NCBI GenBank assembly: GCA_000004985.1
Contig: GG738845.1
Reading direction: 5' to 3' (one strand)
Length of the DNA: 64,000 nucleotides
DNA from: Naegleria gruberi
Lineage: Eukaryota
The stretch's first letter is position 1. Every line of letters begins with the position of its first letter. Below, piece after piece: positions 3,371 to 55,021 of this stretch. The notes under the pieces are model-generated. The model saw only the letters and a program-made list of their open reading frames with translations. It did not search any database and had not been told where the DNA came from. A program made the translations under genes and the position numbers.

Positions 3371-5155
3371 TTATTGTTTGGAACAACCAAAACTCTTGTG
3401 GATAGAGTCGAAACTGGCCTTAACTTGATCGTTGTACATTTGTTGGTAAGTGTAACTCTTCACGTTGGCAATCTTCTTTGAAGGTAATAATAAACCAGTT
3501 TGATGCATTACCAAACTTTCATTACTCATTGGATCAACCATTGAGTAAATCATTGAGAAAGCATCAGAACCATCATTGAGTTTAATCATTCCATCTCTTT
3601 CAATGTTAACTGGTGAACCACCAGAGTACATTTGAATCATTTGTAATTCAGCCTTCATTAATTGGGACAAACCGTCTAAATCAGAAACTGGCATCATTTG
3701 ATTTGGTTCAGCAATTGAAACCATGGTTTCCAATGGAAGACTGTTTTCATCGTTTTGAGCCAACAACGTAACAACTGGATTGTCACTATTATTTTCCTTT
3801 GCTGTAGCTTGCAATTTAATTGGTTGGGAAATCTTAAAGTTGAATTCAGTATTTTCATAAATCAATGATGAACCAGATGAAGCATTAACATCTTCAAAGA
3901 ATTTCATCTTCTTTACCATAGTAAGGAAATCAACTTTGAATTTTTCACTAATTTGTGGCAATGATCTTCCTAAAATTGTGTAAATACTAGATCCACGTTG
4001 GAAATAAATTTCAATAAAATCATAGTCAGCTTGGACTTCAGACTTTTCTTTCTCGCTAGCAACATAAGAGTGAGCTTTATCGCTATAGGCAATAAGTTCA
4101 CCATTACTGTGTCCAATTTTCATTTGTCCAAGAGTCATGTATCCTGTCTTGGTTGAATGAAGAGACTTTTGTTCAGAAACAAACTGTTCAAAGTCTTGAG
4201 CTTCATTAGAGATGATGACAATTTCCTTATCAATATTATCTTCCTTTGAATAGTGAATCATATAAGTTTCAACATTCTTATTTCCCAAATAGAGAGCACG
4301 ATCAGTGGCAGATCCGATAGCTAGGAAATCAGTTGATGGCAAATTGAGAATATATCCAAGTTTGTCATTTCTGTAAGAAACTCTTCCAAACAATTCTCCC
4401 TTTTGCAATTTGACAGTACGAATAATATTTTTAGTTCTACCAATATTTGATTCAAAGGCCTTCATGTCAGTACCAATATGTTGGAACATTAAAACTTTGT
4501 TAGGTTCTTCTGGATTTTTGAAAGCAATGGCAAAGATTTTAACTTTTTGTTGTCCTGTTAATTCAGAAATCATTTGGCAGGCTTCAATTCCATTAACCTT
4601 GATACGATCAGTTTCTTCTAAAACTCTGAAAGGAACTTGAGTTTGAGCAAGAGCAGAAACGTTATTCTTCATATATTGCTTGATATCAAGCTCAGCTGGT
4701 ACGTCTTCAATAGTGATCATGGTAGCATCACCACCACCTCCCATCATCATATTCATATTAGAGGCATCAATGAGAGTAATTGTGGTAATTGGTCCTTGAG
4801 AGTGGACTTCCACTTCATATTGTGCTGGCATCTTGAAGGAAACTCCAATCTTTTTCTGATTGCAAACCTTCCATGATGAAATTCCAGAAGCGTCTTCAAC
4901 ATTGTACAAGATCCATTCAGGTTCAGTTGGAACTGGTGTAGCTACTTCAACAGGCTTTTCAGTTGCAGTCTTGATGGAAACCGCTAACTTTTTAGTACTC
5001 TTATTTTGAGAGAAAACTTTATAGAGAACGAAACCAACAACAGAAGCAGCAGCTGAGCCTAGTACTGTTGCAAGTCCCTTGTTTTCCTTCAATGCGTTGA
5101 CAATATTTTCCCACAATGAAGAATCGGATGAAGTTGTTGTAGAAGAATTAACCAT
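3371..5155 (-). CDS. Hypothetical 594-aa protein with one N-terminal hydrophobic anchor (GLATVLGSAAASVVGFVLYKVF); no recognisable domain
   Basis: Uninterrupted 1785-nt ORF with codon usage like its neighbours. Its stop lies only 67 bp upstream of the RTF1 ATG. Confidence 0.6.
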   Translation of the reverse strand: MVNSSTTTSSDSSLWENIVNALKENKGLATVLGSAAASVVGFVLYKVFSQNKSTKKLAVSIKTATEKPVEVATPVPTEPEWILYNVEDASGISSWKVCNQKKIGVSFKMPAQYEVEVHSQGPITTITLIDASNMNMMMGGGGDATMITIEDVPAELDIKQYMKNNVSALAQTQVPFRVLEETDRIKVNGIEACQMISELTGQQKVKIFAIAFKNPEEPNKVLMFQHIGTDMKAFESNIGRTKNIIRTVKLQKGELFGRVSYRNDKLGYILNLPSTDFLAIGSATDRALYLGNKNVETYMIHYSKEDNIDKEIVIISNEAQDFEQFVSEQKSLHSTKTGYMTLGQMKIGHSNGELIAYSDKAHSYVASEKEKSEVQADYDFIEIYFQRGSSIYTILGRSLPQISEKFKVDFLTMVKKMKFFEDVNASSGSSLIYENTEFNFKISQPIKLQATAKENNSDNPVVTLLAQNDENSLPLETMVSIAEPNQMMPVSDLDGLSQLMKAELQMIQMYSGGSPVNIERDGMIKLNDGSDAFSMIYSMVDPMSNESLVMHQTGLLLPSKKIANVKSYTYQQMYNDQVKASFDSIHKSFGCSKQ

Positions 5156-5356: not shown

Positions 5357-5932
5357 TTAAAAGAAGACATCAGTTTCCTTATGATATTGATATCTGTCTC
5401 CTTCATTGATAGGATGTTTGTAGTTCTTCTTTGGTTGGACTGGGCCTTTAACTCCAGTCTTTGTTTTGGCTTCATATTCAAGTTGTTCCATATAAATTTT
5501 GTACTTTTTAACTCTCTTTTCACATTGTATAGGTGTCCATTGTAGAATATTAACATCAGTATCCCAAGCCATTGCTGTATAGTTTTCCCCATGTTTGTCA
5601 ATTAGTGCTTGCAGAGTTTTTCTTTCCGATTCGTGAACAATAAAGCACAATCTCGATTTGAATTGTGGCTTTTTACTAATGATTTCATCTAAAATTTCTG
5701 GCTTTTTTTCTTTTGGTAGTGTTTCGGCAACTTGGTGATTCTCTTCTGACGGTTTGTTAGGGTCAGCCACGAGGTCCAATCGAGCATAATTGTATTTAGC
5801 AGTCAACTCCCTGTCCCATACTTTTCCGGTACTACTTTTTAATTGATATTGTCTTTTTTGTTTCTTCTTTTCCTTGTGAATTTCGGTTTTTGTTCTTCTG
5901 ATCGTCGACTTGAGAGCACTAAATTTTCCCAT
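5357..5932 (-). CDS. NOP16: Ribosome biogenesis protein Nop16-like (191 aa)
   Basis: Basic N-terminus (MGKFSALKSTIRRTKTEIHKEKKKQKR) and C-terminal block ERKTLQALIDKHGENYTAMAWDTDVNILQWT. The latter matches the Nop16 family pattern (L..L..KHGdDY..M..D..lN..Q). Confidence 0.6.
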   Translation of the reverse strand: MGKFSALKSTIRRTKTEIHKEKKKQKRQYQLKSSTGKVWDRELTAKYNYARLDLVADPNKPSEENHQVAETLPKEKKPEILDEIISKKPQFKSRLCFIVHESERKTLQALIDKHGENYTAMAWDTDVNILQWTPIQCEKRVKKYKIYMEQLEYEAKTKTGVKGPVQPKKNYKHPINEGDRYQYHKETDVFF

Positions 5933-5980
5933 TTTTTTTTGTTCTAACTTTTATTTGATGGTGTTACAATTAATGAAGGT

Positions 5981-6868
5981 TTAAAGCAAAGTGCATTTGC
6001 CTGGCTTCTTTTCTTGTGTCTTCTCTGTTGGAGGATACATACCATTATAGAGAGCTTCTTCGAAAACTTCTCTCACACCCTCATTCAACATGGCACTACA
6101 TTCCATAAATTTAACAGCTTTGATTGACTTGCAAATTTGGTTTGCTGCTTCAACAGAGACTGGTTCAACACCTTGATCCTTGAGTTTGGCCAACATGTTC
6201 TTGTCGTTTCTAATATCCGCCTTGGTTCCTACGAGAATGTAAGGACAATTTGGTCTGTGCTTTTTAACTTCTGGAACCCATTTATTCTTTACGTTTTCCA
6301 AAGAAGTTGGACTGTCGATGGAGAAACACAACAAGAATACATTAGCGTCAGGGTAGGAGAGTGGTCTATTAAGCTTTGATAAGGGAATTATTTTTCAAAA
6401 TATGATCACTTACCGAAGATTATCGTAGCTAATATTGTTAATCAATATAATTTTACACTTGAATTCACTTACTCTGTGAGGAATTAATATTAAGGTTCAT
6501 TATTATTTGTTATAATAGGAAAACTTGTTAACTTCAATATTTACCTTCCTACAAAAAGGTTCTTGCATTACATTTACGTTCGTACTTACTTGTCCAGCAG
6601 TATCCATCAATAAAAACTTGATGGTTTGATTGTTGAGTTCAATTTCTGATGAATAGTTATCGAAAATTCTAATAAGGAGAACGTTTTAAACATGTGGTTA
6701 TTGTAAATACATACGTTGGGATATACTTTTCAGGGAATACACCTTCAGCAAAGACGTGCAAGAGACATGTTTTACCCTGATAATAGATTTAAGGATTTTA
6801 AAATTATGCTCAGTACATACCACAGCACCATCTCCAACAACAACGAGACGAACAGTTTGACTTTCCAT
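5981..6868 (-). CDS. RHO1: RhoA/Rho1-type small GTPase with at least 4 introns. Exons 6821..6868, 6715..6776, 6590..6668, a probable 15-nt exon 6414..6428, and 5981..6365. The Switch-II segment is not cleanly resolved.
   Basis: Exon 1 MESQTVRLVVVGDGAV (P-loop start). Exon 2 GKTCLLHVFAEGVFPEKYIPT. Exon 3 IFDNYSSEIELNNQTIKFLLMDTAGQ. Last exon PLSYPDANVFLLCFSIDSPTSLENVKNKWVPEVKKHRPNCPYILVGTKADIRND...CSAMLNEGVREVFEEA...KKPGKCTLL (CAAX). Introns GTATGT...CAG (44 nt), GTATGT...TAG (46 nt), GTAAGT...TAG (48 nt). The last exon closely resembles RhoA/Rho1 (CFSIDSPDSLENI...PNVPIILVGNKKDLRND). Confidence 0.7.
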
Positions 6869-22048: not shown

Positions 22049-22951
22049 TTAGTAACAAGAGGCATCACTCAATACATCATGGTCATTAACTTTTTTCGAA
22101 ACAATATTATAACTGGAGGCTGATTTTTTCTTCTCATTAAAGTACTTTCTCTTTTTCTTCTCCATCACATATTCTTCATAACCTGGATCACCTTTTCTAA
22201 TCTTTGGTTTGGATTCGAACAGAATCTCTCTTGTGTGAATATATCTAGGCATTTGTTTTGATATTACCATAGCATCTATCATGCATTTGGGAGAAAATCT
22301 CTTTTCATGTAATAACATGTACTTCTCCACACCTAGAATACTTGTGCAATCCATTGATCTATATGTTGTTCGTCTTAATTCATCTGCCTTCTTTATCATC
22401 TTTTGATTATTCTCAATTCTGAATTTTTGTTTGGTTTGTAGTGGTGTTATTGTTTTCTTATCTGAATTACTTCTTTTGATTGTTATTTTAACATTTTCAT
22501 CTCCTTTTGAGGGTGTGACTACCCCCGCTTTTACTAATCCAAATTCTAAACTTGTTATAACAGCTTTTGCAGCAGTCACTTTCTTGGCAGCGTTTCTAAA
22601 CTGTTCAAGGGCTGCTCCTGATTTTTTAGGTTTATCTTCAAAGTCTGCAGTATCAACAACACCCGATCCAACCTCTCCAAAAACATCATCAGTACTTTTT
22701 GATAAATCCTTAATACTAGGTGTTTTTTCCATATCCAACTGTACAAGTTTTCTTGCAATTTCTTTCTTCTCATTTTCAATTTCCTCTTTATATGATTGAT
22801 ATATTACATCTTTTTGAATGGCTCCATACACCTTATTTGCTGATTGTTCTCTTCCCCTTACGGAACTAAGGTTGTTTCCCTCAGCAACAACCAAGTCTCT
22901 GTTCGACTTCATAGGAGAAGAATAATTTAAAGGAGCTTCATCTGTATTCAT
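22049..22951 (-). CDS. Hypothetical 300-aa protein, Lys-rich C-terminus; no confident homology
   Basis: Continuous ORF with ATG and TAA. C-terminal block EKYMLLHEKRFSPKCMIDAMVISKQMPRYIHTREILFESKPKIRKGDPGYEEY looks conserved, but I cannot place it. Confidence 0.5.
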   Translation of the reverse strand: MNTDEAPLNYSSPMKSNRDLVVAEGNNLSSVRGREQSANKVYGAIQKDVIYQSYKEEIENEKKEIARKLVQLDMEKTPSIKDLSKSTDDVFGEVGSGVVDTADFEDKPKKSGAALEQFRNAAKKVTAAKAVITSLEFGLVKAGVVTPSKGDENVKITIKRSNSDKKTITPLQTKQKFRIENNQKMIKKADELRRTTYRSMDCTSILGVEKYMLLHEKRFSPKCMIDAMVISKQMPRYIHTREILFESKPKIRKGDPGYEEYVMEKKKRKYFNEKKKSASSYNIVSKKVNDHDVLSDASCY

Positions 22952-23213
22952 TTTCTCTATTTACAAGTTGGAGGTCCAACAAAACGTTTAATAAAAAATT
23001 TAAGGGTTTAAATTGCTGTAGTTTTTTTAGATGTGGTTTTGCCCAAGCCAAATTTGTTATCATTACGATACCTGCAACATAGTGAGAGTTCGCTGTGTGA
23101 CGAGTTTCCAGATCATCTTTCCATTTCATAAAAAAATTGTCAATTAATATTTTCACTTATCAATTTACATATTATTTATTAGTGTTTTTATTTATTGGAC
23201 AGGTGCTAGTAAT

Positions 23214-25056
23214 ATGGATCCATCCTACAATCAACAAGAATCATCTAGTTTTGATGATAATCATCAAACTCAAACTTATGCATCATCCTCTGAATCTGCA
23301 TCACCACCCGCCAATAGTCTAGGACAAGAGAATGCCCTGTCGGAGAAGCAGCAAAATTATTTCATAAAGACGTCACCAGGTAATATTACTACACTTCCAA
23401 CAGGTGTTGTTAAACAATCTTTAGTGAAAAAATATAGTATGGAGAATAGTAGTGCTCTAAATTCTTCTCTTATCCTTCATGATCAATCACACAAATCAAA
23501 AACATCATTTAAATTTTATTTAAAACCAAAACAAAGAAATTTAAGACATTTACGAGCAATACACGTCAGAAATATTCAAAGCTCGGAAGTTTTGAATAGT
23601 TTTGCTAGTGGACATTTAGAAAAGGAAAATACAAGTAATCAAATTTTCAGAACAGGAATTATTGAACAGTCAATTGTATGTTACTGATGATTTACATTTT
23701 ATTGTTAAACAAATTAGAATCCTTCTTGGAGTTTTGAACTAAATATTAGTAACTTAACAGATGAAAACGAAACAAAATTCATTACAGAACACGAGAGTGA
23801 AATTACTAACTTGGCTGTAAAAATATTTAGTGTACAATCCAATATACAGCATGAATCTTACATCCCTCACCCAAATATTGACCTAGATTTGAGAGAACAA
23901 ATAATTTGTGAGGATAGGTTTAATTTTAACACATTAACATTCATAGGTGTATCAATGAGAGATTTGAATATACCTGATCTCCCAATTAATTGTATATTAT
24001 TAGAATTTGTTGATGGTATATTTATTTCAGAACATGCAGACCTTGCATTGAGGAATCATGGCTCTCTTTCCAATGAAAAAGTATCTAGAAAAAGCTTTAG
24101 AATTGACCATACTTCCCAAGATGTATCACTATTTGATTTACAATTTTCAATTGAAAAACTTTGTGGTATTCAGTTTGCCATTGAAGAATCTCAAAGAAAC
24201 TCTAGATTTATTCAAGATGATGTAAAGAAAGAATTGGAAAGAAGGAAAATTCTGACAGAGTATAAACAAAATATTGAACTCAGAAAAAGTAGGATAAAAC
24301 GATTGAGAGGCGTAATTGAGGAAACAAAAAAATCAATAGAGGAAAGAAAGAAAGAACTTGAAGAAAGGAGAGTTTCGTTAAAAGAAAAACACAAAATTTT
24401 ATTAGAGTCTCAACAGGATTTATTAGATCAAAGATTATCTCTATCACGTGAGCAAACTGGATCTTTGTCAACACAAAAGGAGGAGCTTTCTATATTGGAA
24501 CAAAAATACAAACATAGACAGGCAATGATAGTACAACAATTGAGCAGTATTTATATGATTGGACCTCATCCTCAAAAACAAACTAATGATCTGTACATTA
24601 ATGGATTAACTATTTGTAGAGGAGAGCAACCAAACAATGATGATGAAGCAGCTAGTGCACTTGGTTTTGTTGCTCATTGTGTTAGAATTTTATCCAAGTT
24701 ATTCCAAATACCACTCAAGTATCAAATTTACGCTCTATCTTCCAGAAGTTTTGTGAGTGAGGAGGGTCAAAATGATCAAAATGTTCTGTAAGTACAATTA
24801 CTCTAATTTTTGCGAATAATTTATTATCGTCAGTCTGCCTCTTTTCATGTTAAGAGGAAGTGAAAGACCTAAATACTACAAGGCCATTATTTTACTCAAC
24901 CTTAATTTACAGCATGTAAGTAAAAATGTAATATTATTTTACGATTGAGTTAAAAAGATATTGAAAGTTAAAGGATTTAAGAGAGCGATGAAGAGTGAGC
25001 GAAAGTTCGATGTTTTGGACAACCTCCAATTTTTATTTAAGAATTTACAAAAATAA
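23214..25056 (+). CDS. Coiled-coil protein resembling the UVRAG/Vps38-Atg14 family (PI3K complex subunit). Exons 23214..23675, 23718..24787, 24834..24915, and a tentative 24958..25056.
   Basis: Introns 23676..23717 (GTATGT...TTAG, 42 nt) and 24788..24833 (GTAAGT...GTCAG, 46 nt) restore one frame across the two track ORFs. The central coiled coil (ELERRKILTEYKQNIELRKSRIKRLRGVIEETKKSIEERKKELEERR) is followed by the block LYINGLTICRGE...ASALGFVAHCVRILSKLFQIPLKYQIYALSSRSFV, which is the basis for the tentative UVRAG/Atg14-family assignment. A third intron (24916..24957) and last exon ending TAA at 25054-25056 are inferred; the alternative is read-through to TGA at 24946. Confidence 0.5.
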
Positions 25057-34114: not shown

Positions 34115-34139
34115 TCTCTTTAAGAAGGTTAAAATTTAC

Positions 34140-34460
34140 GACATTATAAACTTGCCTTACAATACTCCTCCGAACAAAACTTATTTACATCCTTAATCAT
34201 CTCAAGAAAGTGAGTATCGTTCATAAGGGATTTATCTACTTCAATAAGTGCATTTAGTGAGAAGCTTTTTTCATTACTATTATTACTATCCACAAAAACC
34301 TTGATATCCAACTTGTTGTAGTCTTGGCGATGATCCTTAAAGGTGGTGATGAACCGCTTTTCAGCTTGTTCTCTATTAATTCCATTTCATCGGAAGAAGT
34401 ATTCTTCGTAAAAACGTATCTACGATTTACTTACAGTTTTTCATCAAACCTTTTTTCCAT
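34140..34460 (-). CDS. Putative small two-exon gene: exon 1 34434..34460 (MEKRFDEKT), a GTAAGT...AAAAG intron, exon 2 ending TAA at 34144-34146. Predicted product about 80 aa. It might instead be the 5' exons of the 32099..34114 gene.
   Basis: About 64 codons are open in one minus-strand frame (..RFITTFKDHRQDYNKLDIKVFVDSNNSNEKSFSLNALIEVDKSLMNDTHFLEMIKDVNKFCSEEYCKASL*). An upstream ATG is followed immediately by a canonical GTAAGT donor. Not in the ORF track because it is split by the intron. Confidence 0.3.
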
Positions 34461-54013: not shown

Positions 54014-55021
54014 TTAAGTACCAGGTTCCTTCTTTAAATCTGAATCCTTTTGATAGGCAGTTTCTCTGATGTGGTCGTTATCACTTGACATTACTCCGGC
54101 TTGCTTCATTATGAAAATTTCTGCAGCATTATCCTCCCCCAATGCCTGTTTGGATTGTTTTGCTTTAGCTCTATATCTCAAATCGATTTGAATTGATTCA
54201 CTAAGAGGGAATATCCATGCTTCTATATGATTAATTTCAAAATCAGAGTCACTCGACAATTGGGGACTGTATGAATAAGTAAGTAAATCTCCAACAGTCC
54301 TCCCAAACCTCCAGTCCTCTTCAATACAAAGAGAAAAGCATCCCATTTTTCCTCCAAATGCAAGGCCATTGTATGGATTATACTTATTTCCATAATTAAA
54401 GTATACATAATTTTCATTTCTATTACTGGACCTGTAAATTTGCACATTCGTTTCCTGATTTTCATTTGTTTCAATTTTGAACAATAAACAGTTGTTATTT
54501 CCATAAAAATTAGGTTTCCTATCCAGAGAAACACTTGTAAAAGCTCCAAATATATTTCCTTCAATATCTTCAATTATGATTATCATTGGTCCGTGATGCA
54601 TTACTATTTCACCAAAAGTTGCTATCGAAGCTCCATTTCTCCAATTTGCATAGAGTAATGTCCATTCATTATGTTGCTTTTGTTCTTGAGGAAGTGCAAG
54701 TCTTAATTGTTGAATAATTGATTTTCCCTTCTCTCCGATTAGTATTTTTGATTCTCCAACGAGATTGGGAGCATTATAGGAAGTTGTTGTATTGGAGGAG
54801 AGACTTGAAGTTGAAGAAGATGATGTTATTTGAAAATTATTCTGATCATTTGATGGGATATTCAATGTTGTCGCATCGGAAGTTGTACAACTGCTGTTAA
54901 AATTGGTATTTACTTGTTGATTTTCAGAAGGGGTAAGTGACTGATCTTGTTTCGTTGTGACTGGGGAGTGTTTGTTTTGTTCTCTTTGTGGCAGCGAACT
55001 GGTCGTATTATTGTTTCCCAT
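54014..55021 (-). CDS. TLDc-domain protein (Oxr1/NCOA7/MEAK7 family) with an N-terminal myristoylation consensus (MGNNNTT)
   Basis: ...HNEWTLLYANWRNGASIATFGEIVMHHGPMIIIIEDIEGNIFGAFTSVSLDRKPNFYGNNNCLLFKIE.. plus GLAFGGKMGCFSLCIEEDWRFG match the TLDc fold signature. A Ser-rich linker precedes the domain. Confidence 0.65.
   Translation of the reverse strand: MGNNNTTSSLPQREQNKHSPVTTKQDQSLTPSENQQVNTNFNSSCTTSDATTLNIPSNDQNNFQITSSSSTSSLSSNTTTSYNAPNLVGESKILIGEKGKSIIQQLRLALPQEQKQHNEWTLLYANWRNGASIATFGEIVMHHGPMIIIIEDIEGNIFGAFTSVSLDRKPNFYGNNNCLLFKIETNENQETNVQIYRSSNRNENYVYFNYGNKYNPYNGLAFGGKMGCFSLCIEEDWRFGRTVGDLLTYSYSPQLSSDSDFEINHIEAWIFPLSESIQIDLRYRAKAKQSKQALGEDNAAEIFIMKQAGVMSSDNDHIRETAYQKDSDLKKEPGT

Follow-up and report, generated by a model that had tools for sequence, protein, structure and literature searches.

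A Rho-family GTPase gene of Naegleria gruberi with a likely one-nucleotide exon among the micro-exons that encode Switch II

The window analyzed here, a stretch of 64,000 nt with a G+C content of approximately 33%, belongs to Naegleria gruberi NEG-M (contig GG738845.1 of assembly GCA_000004985.1) and carries, on its minus strand from 6868 to 5981, a gene for a Rho-family GTPase. We propose that this gene is very likely intact and functional, with its Switch II region distributed over micro-exons of 4, 1 and 15 nt, and that the mature mRNA very likely uses the tetranucleotide GAAG and a single A as exons, a reading drawn from genomic sequence and its comparison with related species. Furthermore, N. 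gruberi probably splices the one-nucleotide exon constitutively, beside the 4- and 15-nt exons, its lineage having gained two introns no more than 5 nt away from a donor already in place.

The gene is located between an upstream ORF identical to XP_002683490.1 and the gene for Nop16, whose ORF (5357-5932, minus strand) is identical to XP_002683488.1 (NAEGRDRAFT_45108). It was also observed that a 594-aa ORF at 3371-5155 (-) clusters at 90% identity with the public protein EFC50743.1 (NAEGRDRAFT_61368), which has 928 aa, so that the public model of the latter must join this ORF to additional sequence. Translation of the seven-exon model of the Rho-family gene gives a stop-free protein of 197 aa containing QEDYDNLRPLSYP, with the P-loop motif GxxxxGK[ST] at residues 12-19 (GDGAVGKT), Switch I, the TKAD and ECSA motifs, and a C-terminal CAAX box reading CTLL. 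This protein matches the Pfam Ras family (PF00071) with 168.6 bits (E = 1e-49), and its alignment to Rac1 (5fi0_B) is free of gaps over residues 107-185, with the Rho insert lying within this region. The complete Switch II motif, that is, DTAGQE together with DYDxLRPLSYP, is obtained only under the micro-exon model, where it reads DTAGQEDYDNLRPLSYPD. The original prediction had named the gene Rho1; its membership in the Rho family is borne out, but the more specific name is not, as the best scores against PDB entries were about equal for Rac1 (216.7 bits), Cdc42 (214.7 bits), and Rho1 and RhoA (both approximately 208 bits). A protein clearly closer to RhoA/Rho1 than to Rac/Cdc42 would have been regarded as a Rho1/RhoA orthologue, and such scores do not support that identity. 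In databases the public N. gruberi protein is named 'rho family small GTPase', and a literature search found no paper citing the gene.

The exons encoding the P-loop, Switch I, DTAGQ and the C-terminal part, which the original prediction had considered unambiguous, are all present in the sequence as it described them, and the end of exon 3 and the 15-nt exon are found where it had placed them (Table 1). It had also remarked that the expected Glu and Asp codons are missing where these two exons meet, and indeed 5 nt (GAR GA, the Glu codon and two bases of the Asp codon) are absent from a direct join, which results in a frameshift. From this it had been concluded that a canonical Switch II could not be assembled with ordinary GT-AG splicing. 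That conclusion does not hold: GAAGA is found in two pieces, both accompanied by splice signals, namely ...CCTTTTTGTAG/GAAG/GTAAAT... at 6548-6545 and ...TTCCTCACAG/A/GTAAGT... at 6473 (slashes mark exon borders), and GT-AG introns of 41, 71 and 44 nt connected through GAAG and A give QEDYD. All introns of the model are of the GT-AG type, and the non-canonical splice site offered earlier as a possible explanation is not needed. A micro-exon GAAG at about 6547-6550 had been another suggestion, which proved right as an explanation once its place was corrected, but incomplete, as the single A had been overlooked. Dropping either GAAG or A shifts the frame, and the codon for Asp65 is pieced together from three exons, providing G, A and C. 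Under this model, the junction expected in the mRNA would be GCTGGACAA-GAAG-A-CTACGATAATCTTCG-ACCACTC, and transcripts would carry the diagnostic sequence GATACTGCTGGACAAGAAGACTACGATAATCTTCGACCACTCTCC, as well as GAAGACTACGATAATCTTCG, which is incompatible with the public gene model. A collection of 15 billion proteins contains no exact copy of the 197-aa protein, and exact protein look-ups for contigs with the N. gruberi locus or its transcript returned one ENA genomic contig and nothing else.

Table 1. Exons and introns of the proposed micro-exon model, in order of transcription (positions in the window; slashes mark exon borders).
Feature	Position	Strand	Length (nt)	Sequence features
Exon 1	6821..6868	-	48	ATG at 6868-6866; encodes MESQTVRLVVVGDGAV, start of P-loop; 48 nt also in N. 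fowleri, N. lovaniensis and W. magna
Intron 1	6777..6820	-	44	GTATGT...TATCAG; position common to all four species
Exon 2	6715..6776	-	62	Remaining P-loop and Switch I (GKTCLL...EKYIPT)
Intron 2	6669..6714	-	46	GTATGT...TATTAG
Exon 3	6590..6668	-	79	Ends GAT ACT GCT GGA CAA (DTAGQ), phase 0, followed by GTAAGT
Intron 3	6549..6589	-	41	GTAAGT...TTTTTGTAG; phase 0, between Q63 and E64; N. gruberi only among the species compared
Putative micro-exon GAAG	6545..6548	-	4	Codon for E64 and first base of D65; between TTTTTGTAG and GTAAAT
Intron 4	6474..6544	-	71	GTAAAT...CCTCACAG; phase 1, within the D65 codon; N. gruberi only among the species compared
Putative one-nucleotide exon A	6473..6473	-	1	Second base of D65 (G/A/C); between CCTCACAG and GTAAGT
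Intron 5	6429..6472	-	44	GTAAGT...ATATTAG; phase 2; position kept in N. fowleri and N. lovaniensis
Micro-exon of 15 nt	6414..6428	-	15	C TAC GAT AAT CTT CG; third base of D65, Y D N L, two bases of R70; between TTAG and GTAAGT
Intron 6	6366..6413	-	48	GTAAGT...TTAATAG; phase 2; position kept in N. fowleri and N. lovaniensis
Last exon	5981..6365	-	385	Includes TAA; starts A CCA CTC TCC TAC CCT; (R)PLSYPD..., TKAD, ECSA, Rho insert, CAAX box CTLL

To establish how many splice paths could connect exon 3 with the 15-nt exon, all GT-AG paths over the intervening 161 nt (6589-6429) were listed, allowing up to three introns of at least 30 nt each. There were 49 such paths, 10 of them in frame and free of stop codons, and only one of these 10, the path through GAAG and A, restored QEDYD. 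Likewise, mapping of the corrected protein to the genome yielded one GT-AG solution. In shuffled versions of the 161-nt interval, any GT-AG path retaining GARGA was present in 18 of 20,000 cases (0.09%), and in 1 of 20,000 (0.005%) when donors had to fit GTA[AT][AG]T and acceptors YAG. Moreover, the other likely introns of the window, recognized as joining long ORFs, measure 39-47 nt and start with a GTAAGT or GTATGT donor, and the proposed introns are similar to them. A YAG-like acceptor 1-5 nt ahead of a GTAAGT- or GTAAAT-like donor was also observed at 24913-24915 (+), 54928-54932 (+), 58432 (-) and 7022 (-); no clear sign of a gene on the plus strand was found in the context of the first two, and these further juxtapositions in the window may be chance matches.

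The weakest signal in the micro-exon model is the donor of intron 4 (GTAAAT), which is without the G at +5 that is present in all other donors of this gene and of its orthologs. When the joining of ORFs within the window was used as a test, GTAAAT was found to act as a donor in 2 of 82 cases, GTAAGT in 4 of 31 and GTATGT in 3 of 31. The AAG on the exon side may offset the weakness of this donor. The only two candidate short introns of the window that have GTAAAT donors and join long ORFs are located at 34118-34188 (-) and 22907-22964 (-), in genes for low-complexity, apparently lineage-specific proteins.

We then focused on the closest proteins, which are those of N. fowleri (P0004, 80% identity), N. 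lovaniensis (P0124, 79%) and Willaertia magna (P0029, 66%). The three genes are regarded as orthologs because each lies directly upstream of Nop16, as does the gene in the window. Throughout the four species, the Rho GTPase and Nop16 genes form a pair on the same strand, 50-130 nt apart (window 5357-6868 (-); contigs L001 3001-4507, L009 1501-3039 and L002 3001-4380). Switch II of all three orthologs reads QEDYDHIRPLSY (also given as DTAGQEDYDHIRPLSY). Exact splice mapping determined exons of 48, 62, 84, 15 and 382 nt in N. fowleri, and of 48, 62, 84, 15 and 385 nt in N. lovaniensis; in both, the 84-nt exon 3 has GAAGA attached and ends ...GGA CAR GAA GA/GTAAGT, and the 15-nt exon reads Y TAT GAY CAY ATT CG. 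In W. magna, Switch II is free of introns and GAAGA(Y) is contiguous. The GTAAGT donor after A6473, at codon position GA/Y, therefore occupies a conserved intron position, since exon 3 of N. fowleri and N. lovaniensis ends GAAGA/GTAAGT at that same point. Overall, the 15-nt exon and its two introns are common to the three Naegleria species, and the N. gruberi structure differs by two extra introns within 5 nt, at CAA/GAAG and GAAG/A; the GAAG and A exons occur in this one species only and hence have no cross-species conservation of their own.

These comparisons suggest a possible history for the region. The donor following A6473 would be the ancestral one, as retained in N. fowleri and N. lovaniensis, and two introns would have been gained in the N. 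gruberi lineage at CAA/G and AAG/A, both resembling proto-splice sites, splitting GAAG and A from exon 3. With W. magna as the outgroup and four taxa in the comparison, two gains on the N. gruberi branch would be the most parsimonious course, requiring fewer events than an ancestral gain followed by loss in N. fowleri and N. lovaniensis. As to the source of the introns, pairwise local and 5'-end alignments that included the introns of N. fowleri and N. lovaniensis gave no significant similarity of introns 3 and 4 to one another, to neighbouring introns or to orthologous ones. The idea that introns 3, 4 and 5 arose by tandem duplication or from a common source was rejected, with the best relevant p at 0.05-0.06 among 28 pairs, which is not significant after multiple testing, and introner-like copies of introns 3-5 were likewise rejected, as the matches elsewhere in the window were chance ones of 9-16 nt. 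Among further relatives of Naegleria sought in metagenomes, the best match was 48% identical and of no use for dating the introns, and a cross-species multiple alignment of the intronic region was uninformative, the introns being unalignable. A stretch resembling ATTTTGAAAA is common to intron 6 (6366-6413) and to the intron of N. fowleri at GA/C (L001 3313-3378), which lie at different positions; the local alignment has p of approximately 0.003, uncorrected for 28 comparisons, and the likeness is probably due to chance in AT-rich sequence.

The possibility was considered that the locus yields no functional protein, either as a pseudogene, which the original prediction had suggested, or because two insertions within Switch II, of 41 and 71 nt, have disabled the gene. 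The frame is broken without the two micro-exons, and, of the species compared, N. gruberi alone has the two interruptions. Nevertheless, the interruptions start with GTAAGT or GTAAAT, end in YAG after a pyrimidine-rich stretch and restore the frame exactly, and the remaining exons and splice sites are all intact. Moreover, comparison of N. gruberi with N. fowleri and N. lovaniensis gave a saturated pS of 0.72-0.79 and a pN of 0.14, values that indicate that the gene is under purifying selection; over such a divergence an unused 15-nt exon and its reading frame would have decayed, which argues against a pseudogene. The single nearby SNP in a second assembly (contig L003, see below) is synonymous. 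In addition, this is the only syntenic ortholog, and the homologs included no N. gruberi copy that was closer. Altogether, we consider a disabled gene improbable.

The public gene model (EFC50745.1 / XP_002683489.1 / D2UY73) offers a different solution. Mapped to the window, it lengthens exon 3 by 12 nt to 6578, removes one GT-AG intron of 204 nt (6577-6374) and begins the last exon at 6373, 8 nt early; the 15-nt exon is skipped, and EDYDNL is replaced by translated intron sequence, QVSTNLNR. Were this model correct, the gene would encode a Rho protein with an atypical Switch II, DTAGQVSTNLNRPLSYP, and the mRNA would show the junction GGACAAGTAAGTACGAAC-CTTAATAGACCACTC and the diagnostic sequence GCTGGACAAGTAAGTACGAACCTTAATAGACCACTC. 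Its splice sites are legal GT-AG ones, its donor is likewise GTAAAT, the frame is preserved, and its length is also 197 aa, which matches that of the corrected protein by coincidence. The intron of 204 nt is, moreover, very close to the average of 203 bp reported for annotated introns of N. gruberi (PMC8296547); for this reason we dropped the argument that it would be abnormally long, and the case against the public model rests on conservation instead. In this respect, the model loses EDYDNL, a stretch conserved across N. fowleri, N. lovaniensis and W. magna, and its substitute residues begin at a consensus GTAAGT donor. It also skips an exon of 15 nt whose coding sense and both splice sites persist in three Naegleria species despite saturated silent sites. 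Furthermore, its Pfam Ras score is 15 bits lower than that of the corrected protein (153.5 versus 168.6 bits), and it leaves the splice signals that flank GAAG and A, which resemble the consensus, without explanation. Based on this comparison of sequences, XP_002683489.1 is most likely wrong, and we regard it as very improbable that the atypical Switch II is the real one.

Another of the 10 in-frame, stop-free GT-AG paths would need one micro-exon rather than two: a 116-nt intron (6589-6474), a 5-nt exon AGTAA (6473-6469) and an intron with a GTGAAT donor, giving Q-S-N-Y-D-N-L-R. However, it lacks the Glu-Asp pair present in all three orthologs, chooses a weak GTGAAT donor over the adjacent GTAAGT, shifts the intron off the conserved GA/Y position that it has in both N. 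fowleri and N. lovaniensis, and disregards the splice signals that flank GAAG. We consider this path highly implausible.

The integrity of the reference sequence was evaluated with an independent assembly. An ENA contig (L003, 4,840 nt, from the 'metagenome' assembly ERZ929261 of run ERR1078381) aligns to window positions 6746-1907 with 4 mismatches and no gaps, and it is identical to the window throughout 6366-6746. The four single-base differences are at 6350, 5750, 2266 and 2007; the one nearest to the micro-exons, at 6350, changes CCT to CCA and is synonymous. Since it carries 4 SNPs over 4,840 nt, the contig is not a copy of the reference, and a strain or haplotype of N. gruberi almost identical to NEG-M is present in the ERR1078381 data. 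Although the discrepancy amounts to just 5 nt, and a sequencing indel had been raised in the original prediction, the identity of the two assemblies over 6366-6746 therefore excludes, to within a vanishingly small chance, that an indel in the reference deleted or displaced the Glu-Asp codons.

Returning to the micro-exon model, its introns of 41-71 nt would probably each be recognized as a unit, that is, by intron definition, and removed one after another. As 1 nt separates the CACAG acceptor of intron 4 from the GTAAGT donor of intron 5, their simultaneous engagement seems improbable, and removal would probably be sequential, with either order being workable. If intron 4 were removed first, the result would be GAAGA/GTAAGT; if intron 5 were removed first, it would be CACAG/ACTACGAT (CACAG/ACTACG), an ordinary acceptor for intron 4. 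The context of the intron 5 donor would be CAGA/GTAAGT before the removal of intron 4 and AAGA/GTAAGT after it, so that AGA stands on the exon side both ways, and thus no step would need recognition of the one-nucleotide exon as such. A role of RNA structure in drawing the splice sites towards each other was rejected, given that predicted folding of the pre-mRNA was no better than that of shuffled sequences (z = +0.57).

Two known arrangements resemble this one in part. Drosophila ratchet points, or recursive splice sites, lie in very long introns and leave no nucleotide in the mRNA. The Naegleria site shares with them a YAG 3' splice site set against a consensus GTAAGT, implying stepwise removal of the flanking segments, but it would retain one A in the mRNA, and its introns are of 71 and 44 nt. 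A recursive splice site with a zero-length exon was ruled out, as the A between AG and GT is needed in the mRNA. In stwintrons, the spliceosomal twin introns of fungi, one intron sits inside a splice signal of another, so that the outer one cannot be removed first. The two Naegleria introns are similarly so close that their removal must be successive; however, the upstream one lies in exon sequence at -1, and GTAAGT is intact both before and after its removal, so that either order is possible. With GTAAGT intact at 6472-6467 and intron 4 ending 1 nt upstream of it, a stwintron was also ruled out.

The remaining comparison is with one-nucleotide exons, and three features bear on it: the A immediately follows an AG acceptor and immediately precedes a GT donor (CCTCACAG/A/GTAAGT at 6473); relative to uninterrupted relatives it is needed for both frame and motif, lying on the only path that gives QEDYD; and its genomic sequence is independently confirmed by the ENA contig L003. 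The one-nucleotide exon of APC11 in Arabidopsis thaliana was proven by cDNA sequencing and base mutation (Guo & Liu 2015, PMC4674806). As in Naegleria, it consists of a single A flanked by an AG acceptor and a GT donor, within a segment that the annotation had treated as one intron; it is needed for the frame, the public annotation was wrong, and the genomic sequence was independently confirmed (PMC4674806). In contrast to that experimentally proven exon (PMC4674806), the one in Naegleria is inferred. Moreover, the APC11 exon lies 333 nt into a 422-nt interval (PMC4674806), whereas that of Naegleria is flanked by introns of 71 and 44 nt, adjoins exons of 4 and 15 nt, and belongs to a heterolobosean protist and not to a plant.

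The one-nucleotide exon of the Fusarium CYP621A P450 genes was deduced by comparison and supported by SRA reads, and the paper counts its own case as the second example (PMC12940212). In both Fusarium and Naegleria, the exon was recognized from a phase mismatch in a conserved motif by comparison with an intron-lacking relative, its only nucleotide occupies the second position of a codon, and automatic gene prediction goes wrong there (PMC12940212). The Fusarium exon, AG/G/GT, is conserved in 24 genes with SRA reads (PMC12940212), whereas the Naegleria exon is deduced in one species. They also differ in the origin proposed for them: rescue by a cryptic exon after the loss of a base in Fusarium (PMC12940212), and, as the sister species of N. 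gruberi suggest, a new intron 1 nt upstream of an existing donor in Naegleria. Overall, the Naegleria case probably joins those of APC11 and CYP621A as a one-nucleotide exon. Literature searches combining Naegleria with microexon or micro-exon found nothing relevant.

If the micro-exon model is true, the Naegleria exon would bring the count given in PMC12940212 to three nuclear one-nucleotide exons and, as far as literature searches show, would be without precedent in two respects: it belongs to Discoba, outside plants and fungi, and it adjoins another ultra-short exon. What is particular to the Naegleria case is the run of 4-, 1- and 15-nt exons, together with very short flanking introns, a protist host and sister species in which the sequence is uninterrupted. 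It would also mean that intron-defined splicing of introns of approximately 40-70 nt requires essentially no exon sequence. In practical terms, gene finders can mask micro-exon problems by reading into intron sequence, and the Switch II of XP_002683489.1 / D2UY73 (QVSTNLNR) would mislead comparative and structural work on Rho signalling in Naegleria. Should transcripts confirm the model, the lower limit represented by a one-nucleotide exon would apply not only in plants and fungi but also in a deeply diverging lineage of protists, and the gene would provide a natural case of exon origin, in which a new intron arose 1 nt upstream of an existing donor, with the sister species representing the 'before' state.
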